A stretch of DNA of 64,000 nucleotides, from positions 96,001 to 160,000 of the forward strand of contig CAXXET010000008.1 in the NCBI GenBank assembly GCA_963666115.2. Reading direction: 5' to 3'. The notes under the pieces are model-generated. The model was not told where the DNA came from. It made no database searches and saw only the letters and a list, made by a program, of their open reading frames with translations. The DNA is from Dehalococcoidia bacterium (lineage in GTDB: Bacteria > Chloroflexota > Dehalococcoidia > UBA6926). The translations under genes were made by a program, and so were the position numbers. Positions 7,578 through 62,158 of the stretch are shown one piece after another; within the stretch, counting starts at the first letter, position 1; the number at the start of each line of letters is the position of its first letter.

Positions 7578-7594
7578 TGCCCCACCTCCGGCTG

Positions 7595-45626: not shown

Positions 45627-45899
45627 ATAGGGGAAAGGGTACTCCGTACGGGGGCAGACGGCAACATGGGGGGCTCCGGGCATGGGGGTTCACCCTTCGA
45701 CAGGCTCAGGGTGAACGGGGGGGTCATTGAGGCTTTGGATTCTTCCCGGTAGTCTACCGCCTACTCCGCCGCGAACACCGAGACCTGCCAGCCCCGCCGG
45801 TCAGGGTAGCGGCGGAGTGACTCCATACCCTGCCAAGCCCTTGTATAGTGAGTGTGAACGAGAGAAATCCGGATGAGGCGATGCGAGTAATTGCAGCAG

Positions 45900-45980
45900 A
45901 TACCAGGGAGACACCAGCGGACACTGGAGCGAATGCGATCAAGCCCCACGCCTGTGGACATGGAGAGGGCTGATGCTTGA
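45900..45980 (+). pseudogene. Truncated HicA-like toxin remnant
   Basis: Frame reads GRHQRTLERMRSSPTPVDMERADA*, resembling a HicA N-terminus, directly before hicB. Confidence 0.4.
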
Positions 45981-46203
45981 ATACAAGGGGTACGTCGGCG
46001 AGGTGGTCTATGACGATGAGGCCGAGGTTCTGCACGCCAGGGTCATCAACAGCGGCCCATACTCGATAGCCAATGCCGAGGCGACCGACGTGGAGGGCAT
46101 CAAGCGTGAGTTCCGCGTCTCGATCGATGTCTATCTTGCCGGCTGCGCCGAGCTTGGAATCGAGCCGATCAAGCCCATTGCAGTTCCCGTTGCGTCCGGT
46201 TAA
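45973..46203 (+). CDS. hicB: HicB family antitoxin
   Basis: MLEYKGYVGEV.YD...HARVIN...EFRVSIDVYL..C.E.GIEP.KP. Confidence 0.85.
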   Translation: MLEYKGYVGEVVYDDEAEVLHARVINSGPYSIANAEATDVEGIKREFRVSIDVYLAGCAELGIEPIKPIAVPVASG

Positions 46204-46212
46204 GGCGCCCCA

Positions 46213-46239
46213 TCACCCCTCCCCAAACAACCCCCCCTC
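46213..46239 (+). repeat. 27-bp direct repeat, left of the dcm-vsr-EcoRII cassette
   Basis: TCACCCCTCCCCAAACAACCCCCCCTC, identical at 49181-49207. Confidence 0.75.
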
Positions 46240-46322
46240 ACCCCAGAACCGGCGCCAACGGGCGGAAGCGCTTGGGAGTGCTCACGCTGGCCTCGTCACC
46301 TTGGGGCTGGAGGAGATGGCGC

Positions 46323-47533
46323 TTATTGGAGTAGCCTCAAATCGCCAAGAAAGCTCTCCAGAGTCTGTAGATGCGGCCGGATGCTGGACGAATAGCTGTC
46401 GTGCAAAGACTTCGGCACAACAAGGCTCAGATTGGCCTCCTGAATCTCCCTGAACTGATTGTCAGACAAGCCGGGTTGCAGAGTGAGAACGTGCTTGTTC
46501 GGAATTCTGGCTGCCTCCTGCATTATTTGGCGCCAACGGTCGCGCAACGTCGTCTTCACAGCCAACATTCGCAGCCGATTGCCGGGAAAGGCAGAGTCAT
46601 GATATGAGGCGGCGCTTGGGAATAGAAAGTCCGGTTCACGCTTGTCTTCAGTGCGCTGCTTGTAGTCGAAGGTGGTTCCTTCCAGGAAGTTCTCTTCCAG
46701 GAGGATTTGCCTCACATTTAGTTCTAACGCCCCGCCTGCGCGAGACCGGCGTCTCTGCAACACAGACTGGGCGTGCCTGCGAAATTCAGCCATAGTCCTC
46801 GTAGCCCTCCTTAACCCTGGGCAACTCTACGGCCTCTTCAAGGCTGTCAGTTAGCCTATGCTGGCAGTCCCATCGGGTTGTGAGTCTTTCTATCAACGTC
46901 GTCGAATGCGCCGGGCCTCAACTCCAATACCTTACCAAGAAGCTCATTTCCCGAAGGATAGTTCTCAAGCCATTCTGATGGCAGTTCGTCGACGGAGAGT
47001 ACGCAGCCGCTCCTTCCTGCTCGATAGCTGCCGTCTCTCGACCACGTGCGAGGCATACCGGGTTCAACCGGGCCCATCAGTTCGGTAACCAGGTCCTCTT
47101 CCGTGGCGTAGTCGCACACCCAGACTTGGCAGCGCGGACTGCCGTTGCCAGAGGCTCCGTGAAAGGCGAAGACTGTCAGTGCCCCGGTGCTCTCCGGATC
47201 CAGGAGTGGGCTGGATGCGCCACCCCAATTCGTAATCCGTGTCTCATTGCGCGTCCTTCCTTGCGTCACCTTGTTGTTGTACCAGGTGGCCGTCACAGTT
47301 CTGAAATCGGCATGGCTGTCAATCGCAACATCGAACTGAATCTTGGGGTTATGCACTTCGGGGCTGTGCAACTCAGGCAGGAAACTGAACATCGTCTGAT
47401 TCGGAACCAGCAAACCTGCCTGATGGCTGTCATTGGCCTGGGTATCGTTGGCCGATAGACGTTTGGCCCACAGAAAAGTAGCCTGCTCCGCTTGCTCCTC
47501 AAGCCAATCACCCAGATACTGTATCGGCATCAC
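46323..47533 (-). pseudogene. EcoRII-like type IIE restriction endonuclease with two +1 frameshifts (about 46888 and 46797)
   Basis: KRLSANDT..SHQAG, RNETRIT, PESTGAL; RRSRAG..LE, PDFLFPS, LAVKTTLRDRWRQI. Confidence 0.85.
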
Positions 47534-47985
47534 AGCCCTCCAATTTCATGATCCGGCGTGTCGCCATTCAGCCATTCTTCGATCTCATCCAACAATCGAT
47601 CCAACGGCTTCCGAGTCTTACCTTTCAGGGCGCATTCCCAAACGCGGAGTTGTCGCCAGCCTTGGTGGGCAATCGATTGCCGTACTACTGTATCGCGATT
47701 CACTGAGGAGCCGATCTTTTCCCGCCAGAACCTCTGATTTGTCGATGGCCACTTGAAGAGATGGCAGCCGTGGGCATGCCAGAAACAGCCGTGAACGAAG
47801 ATCACGGCTGTTCTTGAAGCAAAAACCAGATCCGGTCTGCCGACCACGTTATTGGCATAGAGCCGGTACCGGAAGCCTCTACGATGCAGGCCGCGTCGAA
47901 TCAGTAGCTCTGGCTTCGTGTTCGAGCCCTTGATCCCCGCCATCATGCGGCTGCGGGTCTCGGTGTCTACGACGTCAGGGGCCAT
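47530..47985 (-). CDS. vsr: Very short patch repair endonuclease
   Basis: RSRMMAGIK..NTKPE, FVHGCFWH.H, VWECAL. Confidence 0.93.
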   Translation of the reverse strand: MAPDVVDTETRSRMMAGIKGSNTKPELLIRRGLHRRGFRYRLYANNVVGRPDLVFASRTAVIFVHGCFWHAHGCHLFKWPSTNQRFWREKIGSSVNRDTVVRQSIAHQGWRQLRVWECALKGKTRKPLDRLLDEIEEWLNGDTPDHEIGGL

Positions 47986-48009
47986 GTCACGGCCTTTCCG
48001 GAACCTGGC

Positions 48010-49059
48010 TCACCGGGAAAGTAGCGGGGATAGGGCATGTTCCGCGACGGCCTCCCCTACGGTGGCAACGACTGCGTTTCCAAATTGCTTGTATGCTTGC
48101 GTGTCAGAAACCGGAATCCTGAATTTGTGAACGGCTGTATCAAAGCCCATGAGGCGTGCGCATTCCCGAGGTGTCAGACGGCGCGGGTTGCCCCTTCCTC
48201 GCTTGACGAGGATTTCAGACCCGTCCTTGTAGTATCGTGCCGACATAGTTCGTGCAACATCTTCGGGCCCCACCAGACCAAAGCCAAAGCCATTGCCCCG
48301 CTTCCTGTGCTTTTCGGCGTAGTCACGCAGATAACGCCACAGGTGGTTAGTCAGAACGTACCGCCTATGCACTTTGCCTGATTTTTCCGTATATCGCTCC
48401 TCGCGTTCCTCGGTTCCATCCTCAGGGTGAAGTATCGCATTTAGCCTTGGTCCGTGATGCGGGTCCGGTACGTTCATCGTGTCGAGCGAGATGCCGTCGT
48501 TGTCCCGATAGCCAACAATGAAAATACGCTCGCGATGCTGTGGCACATACCCTTTGGCGTCTATCACCCGATAAGTGATGTTGTAGCCGAGCTCAACTTG
48601 CAGCGTCTCGCGAATAATCCTGAAAGTGTTTCCCTTGTCGTGATTGACGAGATTCTTGACGTTCTCCAGGACAAACATCTTGGGGCGATGGTGAGCAATG
48701 ACCCGGGCCGTATCGAAGAAGAGGGTCCCCTGAGTGTCACAGCGGAATCCTGTGGGCTGACCAATCGCGTTCTTCTTGCTGATGCCTGCTATGGAGAAGG
48801 GCTGGCAGGGAAAGCCCGCAAGTAACACGTCGTGCTGGGGGATTTGCTCCTCGCGGACTTGCCTGATGTCCCCCGCCATCATGTGACCGAATGGATCCTC
48901 GAAATTTGCGCGGTAAGTCCGTTGGGCATTGGCGTCGATTTCGCTGGTGAATACGCACTGCCCGCCAGCGATGTCGAAGCCTCGCCGAAGTCCGCCAATC
49001 CCTGCAAACAGATCGATGAAACGGAATTGAGGCCTTGATCGTCCGTCCGTCCCACTCAA
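48010..49059 (-). CDS. dcm: DNA cytosine-5 methyltransferase (Dcm/M.EcoRII-like)
   Basis: [45 protein letters not shown]; TTG start with GGGAGG RBS. Confidence 0.92.
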
Positions 49060-49086
49060 ACCGCAATGCCTCCCTGTCAGGTTAGT

Positions 49087-49098
49087 GAACGCCTGTTC
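49087..49098. promoter_or_regulatory. Putative LexA (SOS) box upstream of dcm
   Basis: Perfect GAAC-GCCT-GTTC about 28 bp upstream of the start. Confidence 0.6.
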
Positions 49099-49179
49099 TT
49101 TGGAAATGTTACCACACATTCGCGGCATTTGCATCCTTCGTCCGTAGCCAGCTGCACTTGACCGGTAAGGCCGCCCCCC

Positions 49180-49553
49180 CTCACCCCTCCCCAAACAACC
49201 CCCCCTCCAATCCCCCCCCCGCCATCCAAAACCGCCGGCGCCAACCGCGCATAAAGCTCCCGCGGCGCCAGCCGCCTCCGCAGCCCAGGCGAAAGCAGCT
49301 CCCACCGCCGCATCCACCAGGCCCCCTCCCTCAACGCCGTCGTATAGCACTGCGCAGCCTCCAGCCGTTGCGCCAGCACGCTCCGCACGTCAATCGCCGT
49401 CGTCGGTCGTTGCGATTCCTGCGCGCTCCGCAGCGCGTCGCCCATGTCGTCCAGGTTCTTGCTCCGGGCCAGCCGTCCAATACGCAGCCGCACCGATGAG
49501 GATGTGGGCGAGGTCGCCCGTTGCGCCGGTGGCGTCGAAGGGGGGTGTGACAT
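49180..49553 (-). CDS. Hypothetical protein divergent from the capsid operon; 3' end ambiguous in G runs
   Basis: Open frame MSHPP...[14 protein letters not shown]; its 3' end coincides with the right direct repeat. Confidence 0.3.
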
Positions 49554-49627
49554 GGGGGGTTGCGCGGTTGGGACGGGTGTTCTTATTTTGGTGGCATTGA
49601 GCGGCGCATGGCATGGAGGTGAGGCGG

Positions 49628-50518
49628 ATGGCTCTTACATTGACGGAGGCGGGGAAGCTTTCGAACGACGTTCTGCTGCAGGGCGTGATCGAGACGGTGA
49701 TCAAGGACAGCCCGGTTTTGCAGACGCTGCCGTTCATCGAGATCGTCGGGAACGGCCTGACGTACAACCGGGAGCGGACGGCGCCGACGGTGGGGTTCTA
49801 CGGCGTGGGCGACACGTGGTCGGAAAGCACGCCGCGGTTCACGCAGTTGACGGCGACGCTCTCAATCATGGGCGGCGACGCGGACGTGGACAACTACCTG
49901 CTGACGACGCGCTCCAACATCCAGGACCTGGAGGCGGCGGTGGTGCAGTTGAAGGCGCGGGCGCTCCAGCACAAGTTCGAGGACACGTTCATCAACGGGG
50001 ACACGGACAGCGATTCGGACTCGTTCGACGGCGTCGGCGTGCTGGCGACGGGGGACCAGGCGCTCTCGATGGGGGCGAACGGGGGCACGCTGACGCTGGA
50101 CAAGCTGGATGAGTTGATCGACGCGGTGCAGGGCGGGAAGCCGGACATGATCCTGATGAGCCGCCGCTCCCGCCGCGCGCTGAATTCGCTGGCGCGGAGC
50201 TCCGGCTCGGGCATCGTCGTGTCTGACCGCGATGAGCTTGGGCAGATGGTCCAGTACTACGACGGCGTTCCCATCGGCGTGAACGACTGGATCTCGGACG
50301 CGCAGACGGTGGGGACAAGCTCGGACTGCTCGACGATCTTCGCGTACCAGGCGGGCGAGGGCGGCCTGGTGGGGTTGACGTCGCCGGGCGGCTTGCAGGT
50401 GGAGCGCGTGGGGAGCCTGGAGACGAAGGACGCGCGGCGGACGCGGATGAAGTGGTACGTGGGGATGGCGTTGTTCAATGCGGCGAAGCTGGCGAAGTTG
50501 GAGGGGGTTCGCGGGTAG
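49628..50518 (+). CDS. Phage-type major capsid protein (probable HK97 fold)
   Basis: MALTLTEAGKLS...GVIETVIKDSPVL..LPF...GNGLTYNRE, GGDADVDNY, FINGD..FDG, TLDKLDELID, YDGVPI; GGAGGTGA RBS. Confidence 0.85.
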   Translation: MALTLTEAGKLSNDVLLQGVIETVIKDSPVLQTLPFIEIVGNGLTYNRERTAPTVGFYGVGDTWSESTPRFTQLTATLSIMGGDADVDNYLLTTRSNIQDLEAAVVQLKARALQHKFEDTFINGDTDSDSDSFDGVGVLATGDQALSMGANGGTLTLDKLDELIDAVQGGKPDMILMSRRSRRALNSLARSSGSGIVVSDRDELGQMVQYYDGVPIGVNDWISDAQTVGTSSDCSTIFAYQAGEGGLVGLTSPGGLQVERVGSLETKDARRTRMKWYVGMALFNAAKLAKLEGVRG

Positions 50519-51124
50519 ATGAGCACGTTGACGGAGGTGCGGACGCGGGTGCGGCGCGACCTGCACGACGAGGATTCGACGGGGTACCGCTGGACGGACG
50601 ACGTTCTGGACCGGCACATCGAACGCGCGCTGGCCAAGGTGTCAACGGTCGCGCCGCAGGAGAAGACGGCGTCCAGGACTTTGGCGGGCGGGAGCCGGGA
50701 GATCTCCGTCGCCGACCTGACGGACCGCGTGGCAGTGGAGGCGGTGGAGTATCCCGTGGGCCACTACCCGCCGGCCCGCGTGCGGTTCAACCAGTGGGGC
50801 GACACGCTCCTGCTGAGCCTGCCCGCGGCGCCGGCGGGCGGGGAGAGCGTGACGGTGTACTACGGGGCGCTGCACCGGCTGACGGACAGCGCGTCCACGC
50901 TGCCGGAGTCGCTGGAGGAGCTGGTGATCACGGGGGCGGCGGCATACGCGGCGGTGGAATGGGCGGGGTACGCGGTGAACCGGCTCAACGTCGGGGGGCA
51001 GGACGTGTGGCGGCAGTACCTGACGTGGGGGGAGGAGCGGATGGCGGACTTTGAACTGCAACTTGCGCGAATCGGGCGGCGCTCCGGCTTCCGCCTCCAC
51101 CAACTCTTCAATCCGGACGAATAA
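50519..51124 (+). CDS. Putative head-tail adaptor/connector
   Basis: TLTEVRTRVRRDL.D....RWTDD.LDRHI..A pattern of adaptor families; abuts the capsid gene. Confidence 0.6.
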   Translation: MSTLTEVRTRVRRDLHDEDSTGYRWTDDVLDRHIERALAKVSTVAPQEKTASRTLAGGSREISVADLTDRVAVEAVEYPVGHYPPARVRFNQWGDTLLLSLPAAPAGGESVTVYYGALHRLTDSASTLPESLEELVITGAAAYAAVEWAGYAVNRLNVGGQDVWRQYLTWGEERMADFELQLARIGRRSGFRLHQLFNPDE

Positions 51125-51139
51125 CAGGAGCGGTCAGTC

Positions 51140-53125
51140 ATGCACACACTTTCCAAGACGCTTTTGACGGCGCAGCGCGGCCGCTCGGCCATCCCGTACG
51201 TGGACGTTTCGCTGGCGGCGCGGTGGGGCGGGACGGCACAGCTGCGGTGGGAGCGGCTGTACACGGGGACGGAGCCGGACGGGGCGCACGCGGCCATCGT
51301 CAGCGCGAGCGGGGCGTTGATCCGCGTGAGGACGCAGACCAAACCCAACGGGTTTTTTGTCCAACGGGCGGCATCGCCGGGGCCGACGGCGCAGTTTGGG
51401 ACGTGGCAGAGCCTGGGGGCGACATCCACCGGAGGCGGGGTCGCGATAGCGGAAATCGGCAGCCGCGTTCGCGTCTTCGACGTTGGGTCGAACGGGCGGG
51501 ACATCCGAGAGTGGTCAAGCCTGAACGACGGGGCCTCGTTCGGCTCGCCCACCACGATTGCGACGAACGCGGCGCCGGTGAGGTCGCTTGCGGCGGCGTC
51601 CGGGGCGGGCGGGGCGGCGCTGATTCTCTACGCGGATTCCACGGGCGCGCTGCGCGCCATGACACGCGAGGCGGGGGCGTGGACGGCGGCAACGACGTGG
51701 AGCAACACGCTCTCCAGCATCGACGGGGTCACATGCGCGTCTATCGACGGGGATTGGGCGGTTGTCGTGTGCGGGACGCTCGAGGACGGGTCATCGGGCG
51801 TGTGGAGCTGCGTGCTGGGGGCGGGGTCATCGCAGACGGCCGGCACGTGGTCGGCGCTCCGGGAGGTCATCGCCTCGGCGTCCGGGGCAGGTGTGACGTA
51901 CCGGCAGCCGAGCCTGTGCGTCGCGGACGGGCCGCGGCTGAGCTTCGTCGAGTCGTTCGGCGGGGTGAAGGGCTACGTCCAGACGCTGACGACGCACGCG
52001 CCGGCGTCGGCGCGGTTTCGCGACCACCGCTGGCGGGAGCCGTCGCCGTTCGTCGGAACGCCGCGGGTAGGGCCTGCGCTGGCCGCGAATTCATCGCACG
52101 CGTGGCTGACGACGCCGTCCGGGGTGTGGCGGGCGGGGATCGCCGCGCCGGACATCGATCTATCAGACTCGGTCATCTATGCGGATGTCAAAGAGACGCC
52201 GCGCGGGTCGTCGTTGACGCTGCACCTGGCGGAGGATTCGCGGCTCGATTCGTCAATCACCCAGGGCTCCGGGCCGCTGGGGCATGAGGTCAGCATCGCG
52301 TGGGGGTATGAGACGAGCGCGGGCGGGGAGACGGGGCAGGCGCAGCGGTACTGGACGCGGGAGGTGCGGCGGGAGACGCGGCGGGGCGGCCCGGTGACGG
52401 TGCTGGAGGCGGAGGACGCATGGTGGTTCCTGGCCAACACGCGGACGCGCCGGCAGTTGGTCTGGCCGGCGCACACGACGTCCGTGTGGAACATCCTGCT
52501 TCGCCTGTTGACGATGGCGGGGCTGTCCGCGTCGCTGGCCCGCTCAAGCCCGTCGATCGTGTCGACGTATCCGGCGATGACGGTGTCGCCGAATGAGAGC
52601 CTCGCGGTGGCGATCAACCGGCTGATGGCGCGCGTTCCCGATCTGCTGCGGTTTTCGGACGGGGTCATGGAGGCCATCCAGGCGCTGGCGACAGACTCGG
52701 CGGCGTACGCGTACGGCGGGACGGGCGAGCACGCGCTGCTGGACGCGGGGCGGTCATCGACGCTGTCGCGGGTGAATCACGTGCAGGTGTACGGGGACGG
52801 GGCGGTTGGACAGGCGGTCAACGAGGCGGAGGTGGAGTCGATCGGCAACCTGCTGGTGCAGGTGGTGGACCGCTCGCTGACGACGGCGCACGTGGCCACG
52901 ATCCGGGCGGAGGCGGAACTGCGGACGCGCGGGGCGCTCCAGCCGTTCGCGCGGATCACGGTTCCGGTGAACGCGGGGCAGCAGCTGCATGACGTGGTGA
53001 CGGTGACCGCGCCGGACGTGGGGTGGGACAAGGAGCGCCTGCGCGTGGCGGGGCTGCGGACGCGGTACGACGTGGGCGGGCCGCAGTCGGTCTACCGGCA
53101 GGACATCGACCTGGGCGGGGTGTAG
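51140..53125 (+). CDS. Large virion-like protein (beta-propeller-like N-terminus, tail hub-like C-terminus)
   Basis: Trp/Ser/Gly-rich beta segments incl. Asp-box-like SSLNDGASF; C-terminal PVNAGQQLHDVVTV...RVAGL. Confidence 0.5.
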   Translation: MHTLSKTLLTAQRGRSAIPYVDVSLAARWGGTAQLRWERLYTGTEPDGAHAAIVSASGALIRVRTQTKPNGFFVQRAASPGPTAQFGTWQSLGATSTGGGVAIAEIGSRVRVFDVGSNGRDIREWSSLNDGASFGSPTTIATNAAPVRSLAAASGAGGAALILYADSTGALRAMTREAGAWTAATTWSNTLSSIDGVTCASIDGDWAVVVCGTLEDGSSGVWSCVLGAGSSQTAGTWSALREVIASASGAGVTYRQPSLCVADGPRLSFVESFGGVKGYVQTLTTHAPASARFRDHRWREPSPFVGTPRVGPALAANSSHAWLTTPSGVWRAGIAAPDIDLSDSVIYADVKETPRGSSLTLHLAEDSRLDSSITQGSGPLGHEVSIAWGYETSAGGETGQAQRYWTREVRRETRRGGPVTVLEAEDAWWFLANTRTRRQLVWPAHTTSVWNILLRLLTMAGLSASLARSSPSIVSTYPAMTVSPNESLAVAINRLMARVPDLLRFSDGVMEAIQALATDSAAYAYGGTGEHALLDAGRSSTLSRVNHVQVYGDGAVGQAVNEAEVESIGNLLVQVVDRSLTTAHVATIRAEAELRTRGALQPFARITVPVNAGQQLHDVVTVTAPDVGWDKERLRVAGLRTRYDVGGPQSVYRQDIDLGGV

Positions 53126-53129
53126 GGCT

Positions 53130-53345
53130 ATGGAACTGCGGCGCGGGACGATCAAGGAGTTCGATAAGACGTCGTTCACCGCCTCCGTGCAGTTGGACGG
53201 GAGCGTGCCGGCGTGGCTGACGGGGGCGCGCGTGAGCCGCGCCATCGCGGCGACGGCGATGCTGGCGGGCCGCTCGTGCATCGTGGCGTTCGCGGCCGAT
53301 CCGTCCGATCCGACGGAGGCGGTGGTGATTGCGGTGTACGTGTGA
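53130..53345 (+). CDS. Small OB-fold spike/baseplate-like protein
   Basis: RRGTIKEFD....ASVQL...GRSCIVAF..DP....VVIAV resembles gpV/gp5 N-terminal OB fold. Confidence 0.5.
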   Translation: MELRRGTIKEFDKTSFTASVQLDGSVPAWLTGARVSRAIAATAMLAGRSCIVAFAADPSDPTEAVVIAVYV

Positions 53346-53363
53346 GCAAATCATACTGGCGGC

Positions 53364-53711
53364 ATGATCCTCTTCAAGGAGCCGAGCGTTCAACTGATCC
53401 TGCGCGGTGAGAAATCGCAGGCGCGCAAGCTGTGGGCGCGGGCGCGAGCCAAGGAGGGCGCGGAGCACCTCCTGTACCGCCGCCCGCCGATGACGGGCGA
53501 GAAGCCGTTCGCGCGAATCCTGGTGACGCGCGTCTGGAAGCAGCGCATCGGGGACATGACACCCGAAGAAGCGCGCGCGGAGGGGTGGCCGGATAAGGCG
53601 TCGTGGATCGAGCAGTTCAGCGCGGGGCGGAAGTTTGACGGGCCCATAGAAGACGTAGAAGTCTACGCCCTGGAATTCACAGTAATAGACCGCTTCGAAG
53701 AACCCGCCTAG
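53364..53711 (+). CDS. ASCH domain protein
   Basis: ILRGEKSQARK, FARILVT.V..QRIGDMT.EEARAEG. Confidence 0.8.
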   Translation: MILFKEPSVQLILRGEKSQARKLWARARAKEGAEHLLYRRPPMTGEKPFARILVTRVWKQRIGDMTPEEARAEGWPDKASWIEQFSAGRKFDGPIEDVEVYALEFTVIDRFEEPA

Positions 53712-53715
53712 CGGC

Positions 53716-54016
53716 GGATTCCCGCCCCCCCACTCCCCCTGAGCCGCCCCCCCACTCCCCCTGAGCCGCCCGCCCGCTCACCCTGAGCCGCCCGCCCGCT
53801 CACCCTGACCCCGTCGAAGAGCGCCCCCCCGTCCGTCATTCCCGCGCACGCGGGAATCCGGCACACATTACGCAACCCACTTCGTAACGCCTGACAACCC
53901 CAATGCCATGTCATTCTGAGCGCAGCGAAGAATCCAAAGACCCAATGGTGCCCCCCACTCCCCCTGACCCCGTCGAAGAGCGCCCCCCTCCGTCATTCCC
54001 GCGCACGCGGGAATCT
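53716..54016. repeat. Repeat mosaic: tandem 20-22 bp CCCTGAGCCGCC units plus families A, B and C
   Basis: Tandem units at 53725-53810; family C TGTCATTCTGAGCGCAGCGAAGAATC at about 53909 (reverse copy at about 62923). Confidence 0.8.
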
Positions 54017-54187
54017 AAATCTCACTGGCCTAGCAAGCCCCCACCTAGCTGCAAAACAAACCCTTGTGCTATTCTCGATCGAGAACGGGTGAACAGGAAG
54101 AGGAGAGACAACGAGCCATGTTCTTTGCAGCAGCCTCAATAAGTTTGACTGCGGCTGTGGCACTAGACGCAATAAGGCGGTGAGGGA

Positions 54188-55417
54188 TTGCCTGACCTAA
54201 ACGTCCCCAACCGCACCCTCTTCCACGGCGACAACCTGCCGTTCCTCCGCGGCTTGAACAGCGAGTCGGTCCACCTAATCGCGACGGACCCGCCGTTCAA
54301 CAAGGGACGCGATTTCCACGCGACTCCGGACAGCCTCGCGCGCGGCGCAAAGTTCCAGGACCGCTGGAAGTGGGACGAGGATGTCCAGGGCGAGTGGGTC
54401 GACCAGATCACGGACGACTGGCCGAAAGTGATGAACGTCATCAACGGCTCGCGAGAGAGCTACGGCGACGACATGGGCGCGTTCCTGTGCTTTATGGCCG
54501 TCCGGTTGATCGAGATGCGTCGCGTGCTGCGCGATGACGGCAGCATCTACCTTCATTGCGATCCGACAGCGAGCCACTATCTGAAGGAACTGATGGACGC
54601 CATTTTTGGCAAGAAGAACTTTCAGAACGAGATCATCTGGAGTTATGGCTTGGGAGGCTCTTCACAACGTCGCTATTCCCGTAAACACGACATAATTCTC
54701 TTCTACTCAAAGTCCAGCAACTACACATTCAATAAGCCCCAAATCCCAGCTTCTTCCCAGATGCTAAAGGGACAGTCGAAAGGTGCCACCGACGTTTGGG
54801 AAATCCCCTCCATCAACAATATGGCAAAGGAGAGAACGGGATACCCTACCCAAAAGCCTCTACCACTGTACGAGCGCATCATCAGCGCGAGCAGCAATGA
54901 GGGTGACGTCGTGCTCGATCCATTCGCGGGATGCGCGACGACACCCATCGCGGCTGAGCGGCTCGGTCGACAGTGGGTTGGGGCGGATATTTGGGACGGG
55001 GCGTTGGAAGTCGTCAAGCAGCGAATGGAGGACAACCGGCAGTTGTTGACGGAACCTAATCCGCAGATCAACTTCATCACTGAGCCCCCAGAGCGAACGG
55101 ACGACGCAGAAGAGGCAGTGCCGTTCCTACAGGTGAAGGAGCGCTACAAGGAACCTGCCGGGCCTCGAATGACGCGGCAAGAGATGTTCGACCATCTCAT
55201 CGCACAGAACGGCCAGAAATGCCAGGGCTGCGACCGGACGTTTGATGATCCGCTCTACCTGGAGTTGGATCACAACACGCCGCGCTCGCAGGGCGGGTGG
55301 AATCACATTATGAATCGGGTGCTGCTGTGCGGGCCGTGTAATCGGATCAAGAGCAACGTCTACACGCTGGAGGGCCTGCGGCGGGAGAACCGGCGGCGTG
55401 GGCGGATGGCAGGGTAA
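54188..55417 (+). CDS. Beta-class amino DNA methyltransferase fused to HNH endonuclease
   Basis: DPPFN, GYPTQKP, VLDPFAG; C-terminal CQGC..ELDH.TPRSQGG.N..N..LLCGPCN..K. Confidence 0.85.
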   Translation: MPDLNVPNRTLFHGDNLPFLRGLNSESVHLIATDPPFNKGRDFHATPDSLARGAKFQDRWKWDEDVQGEWVDQITDDWPKVMNVINGSRESYGDDMGAFLCFMAVRLIEMRRVLRDDGSIYLHCDPTASHYLKELMDAIFGKKNFQNEIIWSYGLGGSSQRRYSRKHDIILFYSKSSNYTFNKPQIPASSQMLKGQSKGATDVWEIPSINNMAKERTGYPTQKPLPLYERIISASSNEGDVVLDPFAGCATTPIAAERLGRQWVGADIWDGALEVVKQRMEDNRQLLTEPNPQINFITEPPERTDDAEEAVPFLQVKERYKEPAGPRMTRQEMFDHLIAQNGQKCQGCDRTFDDPLYLELDHNTPRSQGGWNHIMNRVLLCGPCNRIKSNVYTLEGLRRENRRRGRMAG

Positions 55418-55535
55418 GGCGATATGAGAATTCACATCAAAATGGGGCGCCGTTCACGGCGTAGCCTAATGTGCCTCCAACCCGCAGTGAACGCCAATAA
55501 CAAGCAGACGCTGAGGACGTTGGTGGAGGCGGGGA

Positions 55536-56627
55536 TTGAGGGGTAGGATGGCAACCTTTCGCGCAGCCACTAGAGCACTCCGGGTGACCCTTGGTCTAAT
55601 CTTCTTTGGGGTCATCCTCACGGTCATACTCGAATTGTACGTCGCCGGTATTGTGTCGCTTGGACCACGCTTTGTGCCATCGGCCTTTATCGCGCTTCTA
55701 ATCGCGACATCGATACTTGTGGTCGGGTGGAGGGTACTTGGAAGCCTTGATGAACGCCGAACTCGCATATTGACCAAACGCTATTCGCGGCGATTCGTCA
55801 GGCGGTACATTCGGCCACGTGCACGGAGATACTATTCTTTGCTTCTCATATTTCTCTTGGCTGGGCTAGTGATCTTTCTTGCTTCGATGGCTTTCGCATC
55901 AGGTTCGCGTTCCAAAGATGCGGATGTCGCTCTTCAATCATTCAACCTAAAGCACGTTGCGGAAGCAGGAAACGGCGCTCTAGAGAGTACGCTGGTCGAG
56001 TATGAGAGAGCCCGGCGGCAACTTGCAAAGCGCTGGGCGGTATCCAATCCCAGTCCTCCTATTGACCTGTATCTTTTCAAGGATCTTGAAGAGTATAGAG
56101 AATTCTCCGGTGACGATTGGTCCGGTGGCGCCGCAAGTTGCCAAGAAAACAACGCGGCTGTTTTTGCTCCCCTCGAAAAGGCGTGGAGCATGTTTCAATC
56201 GGACTTTACATCACTCACTCCACGACATGAAATGCTGCACGCCATTTGGTGCCAGATTTTGGGGCGGGAGTCCTTCTATTCGATTCCGCTCTGGTTCCAC
56301 GAGGGCATGGCGGGACACTTTGCAAACGAAGAGACGGCTCTCTTTAATAGGGGGCTAAATCGCTGGTGGGTGTGGATTAGCCGCGGTAGCTTGCTACGTA
56401 CAGCTGAGTTTTGCGTTTATGAACCCAGGGACAACCATACTGAGATAGGTCTCTTCTACGGTGCCTCGTATGAGTTCATCCGGTCGCTTGAGGCAAAGCA
56501 TGGAATCGAGAATCTCGACGCGGTGATAGACGACATCAGAGATGGAAAGACTTTCGACGATAGTTTGCGTGATCGCCTGGGCGGTACTTGCAACGAGCTG
56601 TACGCCGAATGGCGTGAGAGCCTGTAG
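55536..56627 (+). CDS. Membrane-anchored gluzincin (peptidase MA-like)
   Basis: Three TM helices; HEMLH...PLWFHEGMA. Confidence 0.75.
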   Translation: MRGRMATFRAATRALRVTLGLIFFGVILTVILELYVAGIVSLGPRFVPSAFIALLIATSILVVGWRVLGSLDERRTRILTKRYSRRFVRRYIRPRARRYYSLLLIFLLAGLVIFLASMAFASGSRSKDADVALQSFNLKHVAEAGNGALESTLVEYERARRQLAKRWAVSNPSPPIDLYLFKDLEEYREFSGDDWSGGAASCQENNAAVFAPLEKAWSMFQSDFTSLTPRHEMLHAIWCQILGRESFYSIPLWFHEGMAGHFANEETALFNRGLNRWWVWISRGSLLRTAEFCVYEPRDNHTEIGLFYGASYEFIRSLEAKHGIENLDAVIDDIRDGKTFDDSLRDRLGGTCNELYAEWRESL

Positions 56628-56651
56628 GCGCTCCACGCTCTAGGCGCATCG

Positions 56652-57105
56652 CCCGATGGATTCCCGCTTTCGCGGGAAAAAGGGGGGGCGGGGGGGGGGG
56701 GTCTTCGACGGGGGCGGGGGCTGACGGTCGTCGGTTGGCGGCACGGGGTTTGGTTGGCGGAGTATGCGCCAGATTCCCGCGTGCGCGGGAATGACGGAGG
56801 GGGCGGCCCCCACCTACGCGGGGGATACGGAGGGGGGCGGGAGAAGGGGGAGCCCGATGGATTCCGGCTTTCGCCGGAATGAGGGGAGGGGGGCGCCCGT
56901 CGACGGGCTCAGGGTGAACGGGGGGGGCGGAAAAGGCGGAGGGGCCCGATGGATTCCGGCTTTCGCCGGAATGACGGAGGGGGGCGCCCTTCGACAGGCT
57001 CAGGGTGAACGGGGGGGGCGGTCGTCGGTTGGCGGCACGGGGTTTGGTTGGGGGGGTATGCGCCAGATTCCCGCGTGCGCGGGAATGACGGAGGGGGGCG
57101 GCCCC
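56652..57105 (+). repeat. Repeat mosaic with a duplicated ~75-bp composite unit
   Basis: GGTCGTCGGTTGGCGGCACGGGGTTTGGTTGG..GTATGCGCCAGATTCCCGCGTGCGCGGGAATGACGG at about 56727 and 57020; two ATTCCGGCTTTCGCCGGAAT copies. Confidence 0.85.
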
Positions 57106-57166
57106 CGCCCACGTCCGTCAGAATCCCCCGCGCTCGTGGTTCATGCCCATCCATTATCATTACCCC

Positions 57167-58819
57167 ATGACAACACCAACACCCACCGCCTGGCGCAACA
57201 AGCTCCACTTCGGAGACAACCTCCCCATCATGCGGGAGCACATCCCCGATGAGTCCGTTGACCTCATCTACCTTGACCCCCCCTTCAACTCCAACGCCAC
57301 CTACAACGTCCTCTTCCGCGAGCACGACAGCAGCGAGTCCGCCGCCCAGATCCAGGCGTTCGATGACACCTGGCACTGGAGCACGGAGGCCGAATGGGCC
57401 TATGAACAGATCGTCACCAACGGCCCGTCCCGCCTCGCGGACATGCTCCAGTCCATGCGCGGGTTCCTGGGACGGAACGACATGATGGCCTACCTCACCA
57501 TGATGGCCCCGCGCATGGTGGAGCTTCATCGCGTCCTCAAGCCCACCGGCAGCATCTACCTCCACTGCGACGCTACCGCCAGCCACTACCTCAAGCTTCT
57601 CATGGACGCCGTGTTCGGGCCGGACAATTTCAGAAATCAGATCATCTGGAAGCGGACATCCGCCCACAGCGATGCCAGGGCAATGGGGCGAACCCACGAC
57701 ACCATCCTCTTGTACTCAAGGCAAGTCAGGTCGTTCCAATGGAACTCTCAGTATCAGGACTACGATCCCGATTACATCAGGACCCACTATCGCTATACCA
57801 GTGAGGATGGCCGGGTATTCCGTACCGACAATCTAACCGCCGGCGGCCTAAGCGGCGGCGGTTACCAATATGAATGGAATGGTGTCAGCCGCACGTGGCG
57901 CGCGCCCATAGAGACGATGCAACGCTGGGAAAACGAAGGGAGAATCCGCTACACGCGCAACGGGGTTGCGGAGTATATTCGCTATCTCGATGAGATGCCG
58001 GGCGTGCCGCTCCAGGACGTATGGAACGATATACCTCCCCTGAATCCACAGGCGCGCGAGCGCCTTGGCTACCCCACCCAGAAGCCGGAGGCCCTGCTTG
58101 AGCGCATCATCGCCGCGTCCAGCAACGAGGGCGACGTCGTGCTCGACCCATTCTGCGGATGCGGCACCGCCGTCGCAGTCGCAGAGAGGCTGGACCGCAA
58201 GTGGATCGGAATCGATATTACCCACCTGGCCATCTCTCTCATCCGCAGTCGGCTGCGCGATGCCTTTGGCGACGACGTCTCAGCTTATGACGTAATAGGC
58301 TCACCGGCGGATGTGGAAAGCGCCCGTGCCTTGTCGCTGGGAAACGGCAACACGGGCCGCTACCAGTTCGAATACTGGGCGCTTGGCCTCGTTGAGGCGC
58401 GACCTGCAAATGAGCGGCGCAAGGGCGCGGACTCCGGCGTCGACGGCATCATCCGATTCTTCGACGACAATTCCGGCAAGGCGAAAACCATCATCGTGCA
58501 GGTCAAGAGCGGGCAGGTTGGCCGCAACGTCATCGCCACCCTCAAGGGCGACATGGAGCGGGAGAACGCGGAGATGGGCCTGCTCATCACCCTTGAGCCG
58601 CCCACGAGGCCAATGACCGATGAGGCAACCGCCGCCGGATTCTACGTGCCGGAAGCATTCCCGGACAGGCAATTCCCGCGCGTCCAAATCGCCACCGTCG
58701 AAGACATCCTGAACGGCAACGGTCCCGCCATACCCCAACTCGGCCTTTCCCAGTCCCCCACCTTCCGCCGCGCCCCCCGCCAACGCCGCGCCCAGGGCCG
58801 CTCTCAGCGAATGGTGTAA
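57167..58819 (+). CDS. Beta-class DNA methyltransferase fused to Mrr-like PD-(D/Q)xK nuclease domain
   Basis: YLDPPFNS, GYPTQKP, DPFCGCGT; YQFEYW, GADSGVDG, IIVQVKSG. Confidence 0.85.
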   Translation: MTTPTPTAWRNKLHFGDNLPIMREHIPDESVDLIYLDPPFNSNATYNVLFREHDSSESAAQIQAFDDTWHWSTEAEWAYEQIVTNGPSRLADMLQSMRGFLGRNDMMAYLTMMAPRMVELHRVLKPTGSIYLHCDATASHYLKLLMDAVFGPDNFRNQIIWKRTSAHSDARAMGRTHDTILLYSRQVRSFQWNSQYQDYDPDYIRTHYRYTSEDGRVFRTDNLTAGGLSGGGYQYEWNGVSRTWRAPIETMQRWENEGRIRYTRNGVAEYIRYLDEMPGVPLQDVWNDIPPLNPQARERLGYPTQKPEALLERIIAASSNEGDVVLDPFCGCGTAVAVAERLDRKWIGIDITHLAISLIRSRLRDAFGDDVSAYDVIGSPADVESARALSLGNGNTGRYQFEYWALGLVEARPANERRKGADSGVDGIIRFFDDNSGKAKTIIVQVKSGQVGRNVIATLKGDMERENAEMGLLITLEPPTRPMTDEATAAGFYVPEAFPDRQFPRVQIATVEDILNGNGPAIPQLGLSQSPTFRRAPRQRRAQGRSQRMV

Positions 58820-58837
58820 GTCTTTGGCGATTCTCCG

Positions 58838-59107
58838 CTATGCCTGCTCAGCGAGCGCCAGTTCATTCAGCGTTTTCCCCGTAATCTCCATATAAAGCGC
58901 GTCCGCGCAGATATCGATGTCGTCGCCCCACGCAATCGCCCGGTACTCGGTCAAGCGAACCGACTCAAAGAAAGAGCGGTCGTTCCACGCGGCGAAGACG
59001 CCCTTCCCCGCCATGTCGGACAGGTCTATCTCGCCGGACGCCCCATCGTTGAAGCGCACCCAGATGCGGCAGCCCTCACGGGCCTCGACTGCTATCGGCT
59101 TGAGCAC
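58838..59107 (-). CDS. DUF2442 family protein (orphan antitoxin-like)
   Basis: IWVRFNDG.SGEIDL...GVF...FF..V....IAW...DIC.DALY. Confidence 0.8.
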   Translation of the reverse strand: MLKPIAVEAREGCRIWVRFNDGASGEIDLSDMAGKGVFAAWNDRSFFESVRLTEYRAIAWGDDIDICADALYMEITGKTLNELALAEQA

Positions 59108-59205
59108 CCCTGTCCTTCACGCGCAGTATACCAACGTTGGGGGGTGGGGGGTGGGCGGCTAATTGGTTGGGGTATGCGTGCGGGAAAGGCTACACTTGTT
59201 CCGTC

Positions 59206-62143
59206 ATGCCGCATACGGAACCTACAGTCAATGCAGCCCTCGCGGGTCTCCTGCGGCCTATGTTCGCCGGGGGGACGGTGGCGGGCGAGGACACGGGCGG
59301 GGTCAGCGAGAATCCGTCCCTCCGGTTGGACGCGCTGATCACTGCGCCTGGGCGGTCTCCGGTTTCGATCGAGGCGGAGTTTATGCCGGCTCGCACGGTG
59401 GAGGATGACGCGACGGCCCGGCTCGGCCTGACCGCGCGTCGAGACAACAAGACGATTGAGGCGGCATTGGCCGTGCGCTACCCGGAGCGGTTGAGAGACG
59501 ACCGGGTCGATATCGATTCCGAGTTGGGTGATGCGCGCCTGTCGTATGCCGTCTACACGCTCGAAGGTCCCCGCAACGCGCCCAGGCACGCGCGCTTTCC
59601 GGAGAGCGGCTGGCTTGAAGGAGACGTGGGAGACCTTGCGAACTTGGCACGGTTGGTTTCCACCTCTCAGCGCACGGTAGACGATGCCACGACGAATCTG
59701 GAGACAGGCATCAACGCCGGGGCGAGAATCCTTGGAGAAATGGATACTCGCCAGCCGGGCGTCAATATCGAGGTCGCACGAGAACTCGGCATGGAAAATG
59801 GCGAGCAAACACGCCGGATGGCCTGCGCCATCATCACAAATGCCCTGATCTTTCACGAGCGCATGGTCGGGATGCTCCCCGAACTACGCCTTACGTCTCT
59901 GCGCGGCGTCGCGGGCGCCGACGTGCTCGATCCGCAGGGCCGCGTCCTCGACGCGTGGCGGGAGATTCTGCACGTCAACTATTTCCCGATATTCCATATT
60001 GCGCGGCGCGTTCTGACACAACTGCCGGCGGCACATGGAAGTCACTTGATACGGGTGCTAAGCCAGACGGCCTGGGAGACAACGTCCACGGGAATTGACA
60101 ACGCGCACGATTTGACCGGGCGCGTCTTTCAGCGGCTAATCGCCGACCGCAAGTACCTGGCCACGTTCTACACCCGGCCGGGCGTCGGCAGCTCTCCTCG
60201 CTCAACTCGCGATTGCGAAATTGCAGGGTGTCGATTGGTCAAGCGCGGACGACATCGGCCGGCTGCGGATAGCGGACTTCGCGTGCGGGACAGGCGCGCT
60301 GCTCTCGGCAACATACGAACAGATCGCCTCTCGCTACGCCCGGACGGGGGGCGATTCGCGGAACCTGCACACAACGATGATGGAAGACGTGCTGATCGGC
60401 TGCGACGTGATGCCGTCCGCCGTTCACATCACAGCGTCGACCCTGGCAGGCATCGAGCCGGTTGTGCCGTACGGCAGCGCAAAGCTGTACACGATGTTCT
60501 ATGGGCGCCAGCCCAACGATGACGTGCAGATCGGCTCCCTGGAGTTCCTGGCGGCAGACAGCGTCTTGACGAATACCCGTGAGGGCGGCACGTCAGCGCA
60601 GATGGGCGACGGCGGCGAGGAGACCCCTGATAACGTCTTCGCAGACGTGCCTGACGGGAGCCTGGACCTTGTCATCATGAACCCGCCGTTTACGCGGGCG
60701 GGGTCCGATTGGGAGGGGGCGAACAGAGACGAAGACTACGTTAAGCAGTTCAGGGGGCTGAGCACTGCGCTCGATACGCAGAAGGAGATGTCGGAACGGC
60801 TGCGCCGCTTTACCCGCAATACGGCGTATCACGGGTATGCGGGGATTGCCTCGGCATTCGTCGCGCTCGCCGACAAGAAGCTCAAGCCCGGCGGCGCGCT
60901 CGCTCTCGTCTTGCCCATCTCCGCTGCCGCCGGAATGTCGTGGCAGTCGTTTAGACGACTCATCGGTCGTTCGTACACGGACGTCGAGGTTCTTACCATC
61001 ACGTCGAACGGCGGAGGGATTTCGTTCTCGGCGGATACCAACATCGCGGAATGCCTGGTCATTGCCACGAAGAATGACGGCGCGGGCAATGAGAATACGG
61101 GGCGATTCGCGTCATTGGAGCGCCGCCCGCGCGACATGATGCAGGCCTCGGTGCTCGCGGACGCGATCACGGGGATAACGGCGCCCCGGTCGATTGACGA
61201 CGGACCGTATGGGGGCACGGCAATCATGGTTGGCGAGCAGCCGACCGGCGAACTCATGGCGCTGCCTGTCACGAGAGACGGGGACATTTGGGGGACGGTG
61301 CGGCTGCTGGACGGCTCCGTCGCGCAGACGGCGCACGCGCTGAGCGAGTCACGCTTGTGGCTGCCGGGGAATGCAAACGGGACCGATCTGCCAATAGCAG
61401 CTCTGTCTGAAGTAGGCCATCGGGGCTGGCACGACATAAACATTGCCAGCTCCTCGGGGCCATTTACAAGGACTCCGCCACGCCCTACAGCTACTTACCC
61501 CGCGTTGTGGAGCCATGATGCAAAGAGAGAGACTCGACTGGTCTGTGAACCTGACACCGAATTGCGCGTCAAGCAGGGGCAGGAGGCAAGAGCAAGCGAG
61601 GCGTGGGCAACGGCAGGCCGGGCCCATTTGAGCAAGGGGTTTCGGTTCAATTCCCAGCCCCTGTCGGCAGCATACACCGCAACACTGTCCTTGGGCGGCG
61701 GCGGATGGCCAAACGTCAACTTCGCCAACGAGGCTTCCGACAAGGGGTTTATCCTCTGGTCGAACTCTACTCTGGGATTAGTTTCCTACTGGTGGCATGC
61801 GAACCGCCAACAAAGCGGGCGGGGAATGATGACGGTTACTTCTATGGACTCTCTGCCCGTCCTGGATTTTCGGGGGATGAGCGATGAGCAGCTCGCCGCG
61901 GCGGAGCGCATCTTCGAGGAGTTCAGTGACAAGGATTTGATGCCGGCCTACCTGGCGGACGCTGATCCGAACCGCGATCTGCTCGATAGGCGGGTCGTCA
62001 TGGACATGCTGGGATTCGATGAGGACGTCTATCGGGGGGTGCGTCGGCTGGCGCAGAAGTGGTGCGCGGAGCCGTCCGTTCACGGGGGCAAGGCGCGTCC
62101 TCGTGACGCGCGTCCTATCCTGGGGGATTCTTCGCTGGGCTGA
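59206..62143 (+). pseudogene. Type IIG-like restriction-modification fusion with +1 frameshift at a G run near 60181 (real or sequencing error)
   Basis: RLDAL...SIEAEF, DLTGRVFQRLIADRKYLATFYTRP/ASAALLA, DFACGTGALL, VIMNPPF. Confidence 0.8.
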
Positions 62144-62158
62144 GGGCGGGCGGGGGGG

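Follow-up and report, generated by a model that had tools for sequence, protein, structure and literature searches.

Gene transfer agents (GTAs) and viriforms are described, in excerpts of PMC9662315, PMC10883770 and PMC5721377, as phage-derived head and tail genes that are fixed in the chromosome, inherited vertically and kept by purifying selection, without genes for replication or integration. These excerpts also indicate that GTA genes can span several loci, so that a particle cannot carry its own genes. The present analysis deals with a 64,000-nucleotide stretch of a Dehalococcoidia bacterium genome (assembly GCA_963666115.2, contig CAXXET010000008.1, positions 96,001 to 160,000, hereafter the window, in which all coordinates without a contig prefix are given), and with a run of five co-oriented genes within it that starts with a gene for a major capsid protein (MCP). 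To our knowledge, the GTAs recognised so far belong to only a handful of independent lineages and are siphovirus-like or otherwise tailed, their tails having a tube and a tape measure. None has been described for Dehalococcoidia or Chloroflexota in the literature searched.

Short-tailed phages provide another point of comparison: in the part of PMC9509320 that describes the SU10 tail, the latter consists of portal, adaptor, nozzle and needle, without a tail tube. Closer to the host considered here, a preprint on Dehalococcoides mobile elements (10.64898/2026.09.15.751708) reports, in the portion available, a filamentous element without tailed-phage hallmark genes. No earlier description of the present system was found for Dehalococcoidia or Chloroflexota in full-text literature, a search that did not cover the supplementary tables of prophage, GTA and encapsulin surveys. 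As far as these searches show, two aspects are new here, namely the lineage, for which no GTA had been described, and a predicted adaptor-then-hub architecture with a lectin-like propeller, an OB cap and neither tube nor tape measure.

The window operon probably represents one of three parts of a particle system of phage origin, long kept by the host lineage, and the gene families and structural models suggest a particle that would be DNA-filled, very short-tailed and most likely GTA-like. This reading is based on the gene identities and folds, the dispersal of the genes, their conservation, synteny and purifying selection, and the near-congruence of their history with the host tree. The dispersed module carries the genomic hallmarks of a GTA or viriform, being single-copy, syntenic, under selection and largely co-diverging with its hosts. 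An initial annotation, made from the sequence of the window, had proposed an old, maintained particle system devoid of a tail tube; synteny in the genus, dN/dS ratios, a largely congruent capsid tree and the lack of any tube family among those scanned bear this out. The operon had also been regarded as isolated, which it is not, as it is one of three dispersed loci. With these loci and a class-wide conservation, the original finding is enlarged to a candidate GTA-like lineage.

The capsid operon and its two companion loci

The genome from which the window is taken (2.07 Mb in 9 contigs, 100% complete, 63-64% GC) carries, at 49613/49628-53711, five co-oriented open reading frames (ORFs) separated by gaps of 0, 15, 4 and 18 bp, the same ORFs and spacing as first reported. 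Alignment with relatives places the true start of the capsid gene at 49628 (MALTLTEA) rather than 49613, in agreement with the start originally chosen. The MCP (296 aa, 49628..50518, + strand as for all five genes) has an HK97 fold of the epsilon15-gp7 type, as indicated by Pfam (Phage_capsid 1.1e-9, GP7 5.5e-7), phrog_212 (1.8e-70) and NCBIfam MCP_gp7_epsi_15 (NF045672, 205.6 bits for a cut-off of 75). It is followed by a head-to-tail adaptor of 201 aa (50519..51124; PF24175 SU10_adaptor, 9.4e-11, 42.9 bits for a cut-off of 27), by the 661-aa hub protein P661 (51140..53125), recognised from an AlphaFold model and Foldseek, by P71, a small OB-fold protein of 71 aa (53130..53345) recognised from an AlphaFold model and weak Foldseek matches, and by an ASCH-domain protein (53364..53711; Pfam ASCH 1.9e-6). 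Families or folds thus uphold the labels of capsid, adaptor, hub and ASCH protein given in the initial annotation, while its "spike-like" label for the 71-aa OB-fold protein meets with weak fold matches.

Upstream of the capsid gene, an alignment of 11 genus genomes delimits a conserved 5' region (49545..49627, +), in which the ribosome-binding site GGAGGTGA is invariant and located 5-7 nt before the capsid start. Also in this region are a GTG.CA element, located upstream, and a TTGC-N15-GTTCTTAT element that is kept in 11/11 genus genomes and, judging from its sequence, is a candidate promoter. The genome has a single exact copy of the motif, matches with one mismatch being at control level; when a motif common to the three loci was sought, the capsid-promoter motif was found only upstream of the capsid gene in the genome scan. 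Similarity to the other genus genomes resumes ~85 nt 5' of the capsid start, to the right of a restriction-modification (R-M) insertion.

The composition of the operon (GC 0.70, against 0.56-0.63 in the flanks) is unlike that of its lower-GC surroundings, as had been noticed initially. Its GC content at third codon positions (GC3, 0.82-0.94, against 0.62-0.79 in the flanks) equals or exceeds the values of most other window ORFs with a high GC3. A Pfam scan of 50 ORFs of the window detected neither portal nor terminase nor tail genes, consistent with the earlier statement that the window contains none.

Packaging genes had been predicted to lie elsewhere or to be absent, and a portal gene and a terminase-like gene are indeed present elsewhere in the genome. 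The capsid gene of L029, a distant relative, is immediately preceded by genes for a portal and a small protein, and the use of these proteins as queries revealed homologues in the window's genome. Locus 2 (C8:192,549-196,444), a tight operon of the order p152-p64-TerL-like-HTH-portal (TerL, large terminase; HTH, helix-turn-helix), lies beyond the window, at a distance of 43 kb on the downstream side of the capsid operon. The portal (C8:192,549-193,911) is assigned by SPP1_portal (1.4e-13) and phrog_64 (1.6e-26), and also matches P22_portal and SU10_portal weakly; p64 displays, by eye, a C-terminal hydrophobic or membrane helix. The TerL-like protein (467 aa) matches Terminase_6C (3.5e-4; in the genome scan 23.6 bits, over the cut-off) and phrog_5909 (1.7e-8). 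A profile built from 17 TerL sequences reaches the nuclease domains of Thermus-phage TerL among PDB sequences with an E-value of 0.036, and a search of PDB sequences with TerL as a single sequence gave no match. Residues R36-Q37-x-G39-K40, D131-E132, G160-T161, D271, D349 and D437-D438 are invariant in these 17 sequences from across the class, and we take them to be the Walker A, Walker B and coupling motifs and the three nuclease acidic residues. The 467-aa protein is, on this predicted basis, a divergent large terminase.

Locus 3 (C7:135,483-136,019) encodes a scaffold-like protein and comes after relA, rpsT and a phosphoesterase gene. Its label, the weakest of the set, comes from gene position and from a language model, which gave a lead to a "Scaffolding protein" cluster (0.95). 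A small terminase was considered for p152 and set aside, its language-model lead to the T5 small terminase (0.81) being too weak to use; p152 otherwise falls with Chloroflexota hypothetical clusters. Neither Pfam nor PHROG has a family for P661, P71, p152, p64 or the scaffold.

Altogether the system comprises ten genes in three chromosomal loci: capsid, adaptor, hub and P71; p152, p64, TerL, HTH and portal; and scaffold. The genome contains exactly one match each for SPP1_portal, Terminase_6C and Phage_capsid, and none for Phage_portal, TerL_ATPase, PhageMin_Tail, Phage_sheath_1, Phage_TTP_1, Phage_tail_2 or Phage_tube. A Pfam scan of the ORFs around the three loci detected no integrase, repressor or replication family, so that caudovirus-derived structural and packaging genes are found in the chromosome without replication, integration or lysogeny modules. 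Accessory genes that accompany the module in other families (L029_154, LamG 228, 78, 89; L028_127, 347; L030 genes; Gp80) have no tblastn match in the window's genome.

Conservation, synteny and selection in the genus

In a sample of 21 other genomes, each from a different species of the window's genus, capsid, hub, TerL and scaffold are present in 21/21 genomes (82-91%, 60-74%, 69-81% and 59-76% identity to the window's proteins, respectively), and the portal in 20/21 (83-91%), the genome without a portal match being 90% complete and split into 230 contigs. Adaptor identity within the genus is 74-85%. Gene order is equally stable. The divergent TPR gene TPR2 directly abuts the capsid gene in 14/14 other genus loci, and Usp lies ~0.1-0.9 kb after ASCH in 13/14. 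Locus 2 stands beside g12795 and Rex, in the same order, in 16/16 loci, with atpD/atpC seen in 12/16 and p64 in 15/16 (tblastn). The conserved synteny (14/14, 13/14 and 16/16 loci) places the homologues among housekeeping genes and not inside complete prophages, a setting in line with the maintained system first put forward. A complete or recently decayed prophage was ruled out by the three dispersed loci, the high GC3, the presence in all genus genomes sampled and the housekeeping flanks.

The capsid and TerL-portal operons are 50-113 kb apart in closed genus genomes, and the distance from operon to scaffold is 170-280 kb in 7/9 genus genomes with both on one contig. Two genomes depart from the latter range: in the deeper-branching species G016 (L025 ~2466-8292), the scaffold gene is inverted and located ~4.5 kb from the capsid gene, with three TPR-cluster genes between them, and in G009 it is 38 kb from the operon. 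These shorter distances suggest a stepwise dispersal, of which G016 looks like an intermediate stage. In most closed genus genomes, a headful of >~200 kb would be needed to carry all the genes, a figure derived from these distances and independent of capsid capacity.

Selection on the ten genes was estimated as median pairwise ratios of nonsynonymous to synonymous substitution (dN/dS, NG86; 9-20 sequences per gene, excluding those with <75% coverage or internal stops). The values, which are approximate because dS is high (medians 0.46-1.14), are 0.075 for MCP, 0.086 for portal, 0.094 for adaptor, 0.098 for TerL, 0.113 for P71, 0.151 for hub, 0.16 for p64, 0.167 for p152, 0.174 for scaffold and 0.213 for HTH. 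Neighbouring genes taken as controls gave 0.032 (AtpD), 0.05 (ECH), 0.056 (Metallophosphoesterase), 0.057 (Rex), 0.091 (AtpC), 0.105 (TPR1), 0.113 (TPR2), 0.145 (Usp), 0.168 (g43626) and 0.223 (g12795). The particle genes (0.07-0.21) are in the range of their housekeeping neighbours, and no relaxed selection is apparent. Two copies among the 21 genomes are defective: the portal gene of G019 (L119:9869-11197) has a TAA at codon 31, and the capsid gene of G004 (L024:11764-12658) has a C-terminal frame change near residue 270. These defects are either assembly errors or a first decay.

Distribution and descent in the class

Across an even sample of 401 Dehalococcoidia genomes from 223 genera, with a capsid threshold of E<=1e-30, the capsid was found in 216/401 genomes, 127/223 genera and 170/299 high-quality genomes, nearly always as one match (the count includes the unpublished genome G257, without which it is 215/400). 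When one genome per GTDB species was scanned, at least 526 contigs had a capsid relative, and the best 80 of these all belong to Dehalococcoidia or Chloroflexota metagenome-assembled genomes, with 68-89% identity. Class-level identity to the window's protein is 60-73% for capsid, compared with 73-83% for AtpD and 46-54% for Rel. Outside the class, 15 genomes from a phylum sample of 301 Chloroflexota genomes carry single weaker capsid relatives (45-53% identity).

Gene order was read in 71 non-genus and 9 genus loci; absences in the former mean little, because contig ends cut many of them. The recurring order in non-genus loci is p152-(p64)-TerL-HTH-portal-[gap]-scaffold-capsid-(small genes)-adaptor-hub-P71, and its tightest arrangement, in L089, takes up ~10.5 kb. 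The hub lies <=1 kb downstream of the adaptor in 46/46 loci holding both (including the 9 genus loci), the scaffold <=400 nt upstream of the capsid in 36/42, and the portal <=2 kb downstream of TerL in 8/9, while P71 comes directly after the hub in 30/43 loci and directly after the capsid in 10/43. Elsewhere in the class, the module is again flanked by housekeeping genes (rpsU/yqeY, ruvB, dinB/dnaE2, trpA/chorismate mutase, moaA/FBPase, dnaN). In 19 non-genus relatives, five components are kept or missing together, except for a few degraded intermediates; split or stop-bearing remnants are found in G025, G029-G032 and G034.

Some distant loci contain further genes. In G031 (L033:9259-12574), the hub homologue is split and a Gp80 gene (podophage GP4 fiber I, 1.6e-48) stands between its halves, TerL being also in two pieces. 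A divergent 600-800-aa TIG/Big_6/Ig_Rha78A_N protein is encoded beside HTH-portal in three loci (L029:17003-19441, L182:2199-4049, L179:529-2418), and could be located at the cell surface and associated with the module.

Could these genes be inert or slowly decaying prophage debris, or single exapted genes, with no particle made any more? The broken copies (the G019 portal stop, the G004 capsid frame change and the fragments in G030 to G032) would suit this explanation, as would the dispersal of the loci, the lack of lysis, fibre, integrase and replication genes nearby, and the absence of the module from 185 of the 401 class genomes. It is nevertheless very unlikely, because a complete, stoichiometrically coherent head-neck-hub set would not persist for so long. 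All ten genes evolve under constraints similar to those of housekeeping neighbours (dN/dS 0.07-0.21), capsid and portal remain 82-91% identical across 20-21 genus species, the capsid is more conserved than Rel class-wide, components are kept or lost together, and the catalytic-type residues of the terminase are invariant throughout the class.

A long-kept host system is further indicated by phylogeny. Trees of the capsid and of AtpD+Rel were inferred (FastTree, LG+gamma) for 41 genomes from 18 GTDB families, i.e. 35 chosen by assembly quality and family coverage, the window's genome and 5 relatives, with marker proteins extracted by tblastn and AtpD missing in 2 genomes. The two trees have 24/38 internal splits in common, where 2000 label shuffles gave 0.27 on average and never more than 3, and family-mean patristic distances are correlated (Mantel r 0.40; 18/5000 permutations as high). 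Among the families represented by two or more genomes, f38 is the only one that the capsid tree does not recover as monophyletic, as one of its genomes groups with f29. The capsid tree is hence largely congruent with the housekeeping tree, as would befit the old system initially proposed; since kin share labels, this agreement reflects mostly vertical descent, with at least one exception, and is not proof of strict co-speciation. Vertical inheritance together with purifying selection, another property of GTAs, is observed here in 20-21/21 genus genomes, dN/dS of 0.07-0.21 and 24/38 shared splits, with one family split and a moderate deep agreement.

Relatives of the capsid also occur in viral collections. 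The nearest phage capsids (274 of 50,697 phage records) have at most ~42% identity, and IMG/VR contains 392 related contigs, the best 80 of which are 4-27 kb long and carry the module only. The flanks of two of the longest (L179, L182) have no recognised phage gene, and encode Ig-domain, signal-peptidase-like and response-regulator proteins. Another contig, L163, has a serine recombinase and a CAP12/Pycsar-type TIR effector at 2417-6663, upstream of the portal-like match; this island is inserted, and its recombinase is the only one in the flanks scanned. Counts of Dehalococcoidia "prophages" are inflated, because virus-detection pipelines file these host genes as viral (the 392 IMG/VR relatives).

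These data raise the question of a mobile element, either a temperate phage with a wide distribution or a Dehalococcoidia satellite able to form capsids, whose other genes would be unrecognisable or located beyond the fetched flanks. Besides the 392 contigs, such an element could account for a capsid family common in real phages (274 records, <=42% identity), flanks that differ between families, the f38 split, which hints at one transfer or more, and the three TerL matches of G027. This is however improbable given that flanks are identical in 14/14 and 16/16 genus loci, that the three loci are 50-280 kb apart in closed genomes and abutted by housekeeping genes, and that nearly all of the 216 genomes have one copy. 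Moreover, apart from the L163 serine-recombinase island there is no integrase in the flanks scanned, the best 80 of the 392 viral contigs carry the module alone, the hub has no tblastn match in the 50,697 phage records, and 24/38 splits are shared between capsid and host-marker trees.

Predicted folds of P661 and P71

As neither P661 nor P71 belongs to a sequence family, their structures were modelled with AlphaFold, from alignments of 41 and 37 relatives, respectively. The P661 model has a predicted local distance difference test score (pLDDT) of 91.5 and a predicted TM-score of 0.87. Residues ~30-336 are predicted to form a six-bladed beta-propeller of the lectin/sialidase type, which superimposes on fucose lectins and sialidases over residues 42-336 (VIA Z 25-26, root-mean-square deviation 2.7-2.9, 257-281 residues) and contains a conserved Asp-box-like S127-x-D129-x-G131 motif. 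Residues ~340-661 adopt, in the model, a baseplate-hub fold of the Mu gp44/T4 gp27/VgrG type. Foldseek relates this domain to Mu gp44, the MuSo2 43-kDa tail protein, T4 gp27, VgrG and 80alpha Tal (E 5e-15 to 1e-9), the PDB matches including 7b5h_AJ (5e-15), 1wru (3.5e-14) and 3cdd. No nozzle chain is present among the best 50 Foldseek rows for P661. An SU10-like podovirus tail was rejected: the adaptor family fits, but the next gene has the hub fold, and the genus module has no needle or fibre gene.

The P71 model (pLDDT 92.9) is a five-stranded OB-fold, whose weak Foldseek matches mix the initiation factor IF-1 (1.6e-3) with spike OB domains of Mu (baseplate 9ki1_V, 4.4e-3), P2 gpV (5.6e-3), R2 pyocin and T4 gp5, at E 1.6e-3 and weaker. 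Judging from this model and the position of its gene, P71 could act as a trimer that plugs the hub or caps it as a spike. A complex prediction of hub residues 337-661 with P71 scored 0.00 and gives no verdict either way. In L031 (8257-8928, G035), the P71 OB domain forms the N-terminus of a 223-aa protein with an additional 150-aa C-terminal domain.

A putative particle and its possible roles

The gene set corresponds to the predicted needs of a DNA-filled head with a minimal tail, and to nothing more. By analogy with tailed phages, portal, scaffold and capsid protein would build a procapsid, which the terminase-like ATPase/nuclease would load with DNA that p152 or the HTH protein may help to recognise. 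An adaptor ring would then dock on the portal, and a hub trimer would close the channel directly, without a tail tube, the OB-fold protein capping the hub. The hub propeller may finally bind a glycan at the surface of the recipient cell. Release and transfer, like assembly and DNA packaging, are deduced from this analogy, and candidates for a lysis protein or a regulator are limited to p64, which has a hydrophobic helix at its C-terminus, and the HTH protein. Since the genes are spread over hundreds of kb, and replication, integration and lysogeny genes are lacking, the particle could not propagate itself, and its cargo would most likely be host DNA, as in GTAs.

It is also conceivable, although rather unlikely, that a particle is made for another purpose: exporting or storing, for instance, extracellular DNA, killing in the manner of a bacteriocin, housing proteins, or countering phages by decoy or interference. 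The hub has a lectin/sialidase-like propeller but no fibres accompany it, no link to competence or lysis is seen, the neighbourhood is rich in defence genes in the window genome, and the capsid has a sub-threshold SrpI-like encapsulin match (18 bits for a cut-off of 22.8). Nevertheless, DNA is the cargo suggested by a portal together with a terminase whose ATPase- and nuclease-type residues are conserved, the R-M neighbours are recent insertions absent in 14/14 other genus loci, none of the 11 proteins matches a PADLOC defence model at E<=0.001, and there is neither sheath nor tube for a tailocin. More specific candidates were discarded on similar grounds: a known anti-phage defence system, with 0/11 PADLOC matches at this threshold; a tailocin or contractile injection system, with no Phage_sheath_1, Phage_tube, Phage_TTP_1 or Phage_tail_2 in a genome where capsid, portal and terminase are present; and an encapsulin, the SrpI-like score being below its cut-off, with portal and terminase co-occurring with the shell gene and no adjacent cargo gene. 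The nanocompartment considered in the initial annotation is likewise disfavoured, since the capsid is accompanied by a portal and by a terminase whose catalytic-type residues are conserved.

Several observations nonetheless weigh against a long-kept, GTA-like particle. At the level of individual genes, TerL resembles known families only weakly (E 3.5e-4 to 1.7e-8) and its Walker A is GKN rather than GKS/T, the G019 portal stop and the G004 capsid frame change may signal decay, as may the remnants in G025, G029-G032 and G034, and the dN/dS values are affected by the high dS mentioned above. At the level of the class, 185/401 genomes have no capsid match at E<=1e-30, including all genomes sampled in two families (0/25 and 0/11) and in two sister genera of the window's own family (0/4 genomes). 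The capsid tree splits f38 and agrees only moderately with the host tree in its deep branches, and host-specific phages can also mirror host taxonomy. Finally, no lysis gene, receptor-binding fibre or regulator was recognised near the loci scanned, and no expression data were found for the particle genes (among public sequencing runs, no RNA run was listed, and two DNA runs contained 0.30-0.37 of the words). We know of no solved precedent for a gp27-type hub docking straight on an adaptor, and a tail tube of an unrecognised family is possible.

A broader proposal, which we put forward tentatively, is that the system could be a sixth independently domesticated GTA lineage, fixed before much of Dehalococcoidia radiated, endowed with a DNA-filled capsid and a tube-less tail of adaptor, propeller-bearing hub and OB plug that no GTA is known to have, and mediating chromosomal gene exchange in a large, mostly uncultured and genome-streamlined class. 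If true, gene exchange by way of capsids would be inherent to a lineage that is abundant in the subsurface, the sea and soils. The module would also offer a dated case of a domesticated virus dispersing step by step, its genes being contiguous in some families and divided into three loci in this genus, as well as a minimal tail design for structural study, with a hub docked straight on the adaptor.

Genes surrounding the capsid operon

As first noted, the operon is flanked by R-M genes, with Dcm, Vsr and a split EcoRII upstream, and methyltransferase (MTase)-HNH and MTase-Mrr genes downstream (Pfam). The upstream island (45684..49544; small ORFs, split EcoRII, Vsr, Dcm; GC 0.56-0.57), whose right boundary is given by the genus alignment, lies between TPR2 and the capsid operon. 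The downstream variable region (53712..62158; MTase-HNH, peptidase MA, MTase-Mrr and two more genes; GC 0.56-0.63) lies between ASCH and Usp. Because of their low GC and their absence from the 14/14 other genus loci, the R-M genes are seen as recent arrivals in a conserved locus and not as partners of the operon. The EcoRII endonuclease is encoded in two ORFs (EcoRII-N 46856-47533, EcoRII-C 46323-46793), beside intact Dcm (48010-49350) and Vsr (47530-47985) genes, and it looks as if the restriction gene has been disrupted and the methylase kept.

The ASCH gene, initially counted as part of the operon, adjoins the module in 9/9 genus loci and in 0/71 other Dehalococcoidia loci. The gap between P71 and ASCH is ~0.4 kb in most of the 14 genus loci, and in the two gaps that were read it contains a convergent 114-aa gene on the opposite strand (L016:11229-11573, L020:11201-11545). 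ASCH appears as an operon member in the window genome because this gene is missing there, and is probably a genus-specific neighbour that does not belong to the particle system.

Elsewhere in the window, an Nmad2 gene (nucleotide modification associated domain 2; 35043-35633, 1.2e-56) is situated in a low-GC stretch, another probable island. The window also contains dnaN (4282-5421) and a long gyrB (12843-15572, 909 aa), with a minimum of the cumulative GC skew at ~15-16 kb; its start probably adjoins the replication origin, ~34 kb from the capsid operon.

Comparison with known particle systems

Encapsulins resemble the present system in having an HK97-fold shell protein encoded in the host chromosome without a complete phage. 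They differ from it in that portal, terminase, scaffold and adaptor here co-occur and co-evolve with the shell, and no cargo enzyme is adjacent. With SU10 and epsilon15 short-tailed phages, the system shares the SU10_adaptor family, the MCP_gp7_epsi_15/GP7 capsid, the weak P22_portal and SU10_portal matches and the lack of a tail tube. In contrast to these phages, a predicted propeller-hub takes the place of the nozzle, needle, fibre, replication and lysis genes are missing, and no phage record has a capsid more than ~42% identical to the present one.

The hub and spike of long-tailed phages, tailocins and type VI secretion systems (Mu gp44-gp45, T4 gp27-gp5, VgrG) are the closest structural counterparts of the distal genes. 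The predicted C-terminal fold of P661 is that of these hubs (E 5e-15 to 1e-9), P71 weakly resembles the spike OB domain, and the hub-then-OB gene order parallels both gp44-gp45 and the gp27-gp5 order within VgrG. Unlike them, the present set has no tube, sheath or other baseplate protein, its OB protein lacks a beta-helical needle, and the hub carries an N-terminal propeller and would have to dock on a head-tail adaptor.

Compared with GTAs (RcGTA of Rhodobacter, BaGTA of Bartonella, VSH-1, Dd1, VTA), the putative system described here differs in that no tube, sheath or tape-measure family was found, and in that its hub gene directly follows the adaptor gene. It is nonetheless like them in consisting of phage-derived genes that are dispersed in the chromosome, transmitted vertically and maintained by selection.

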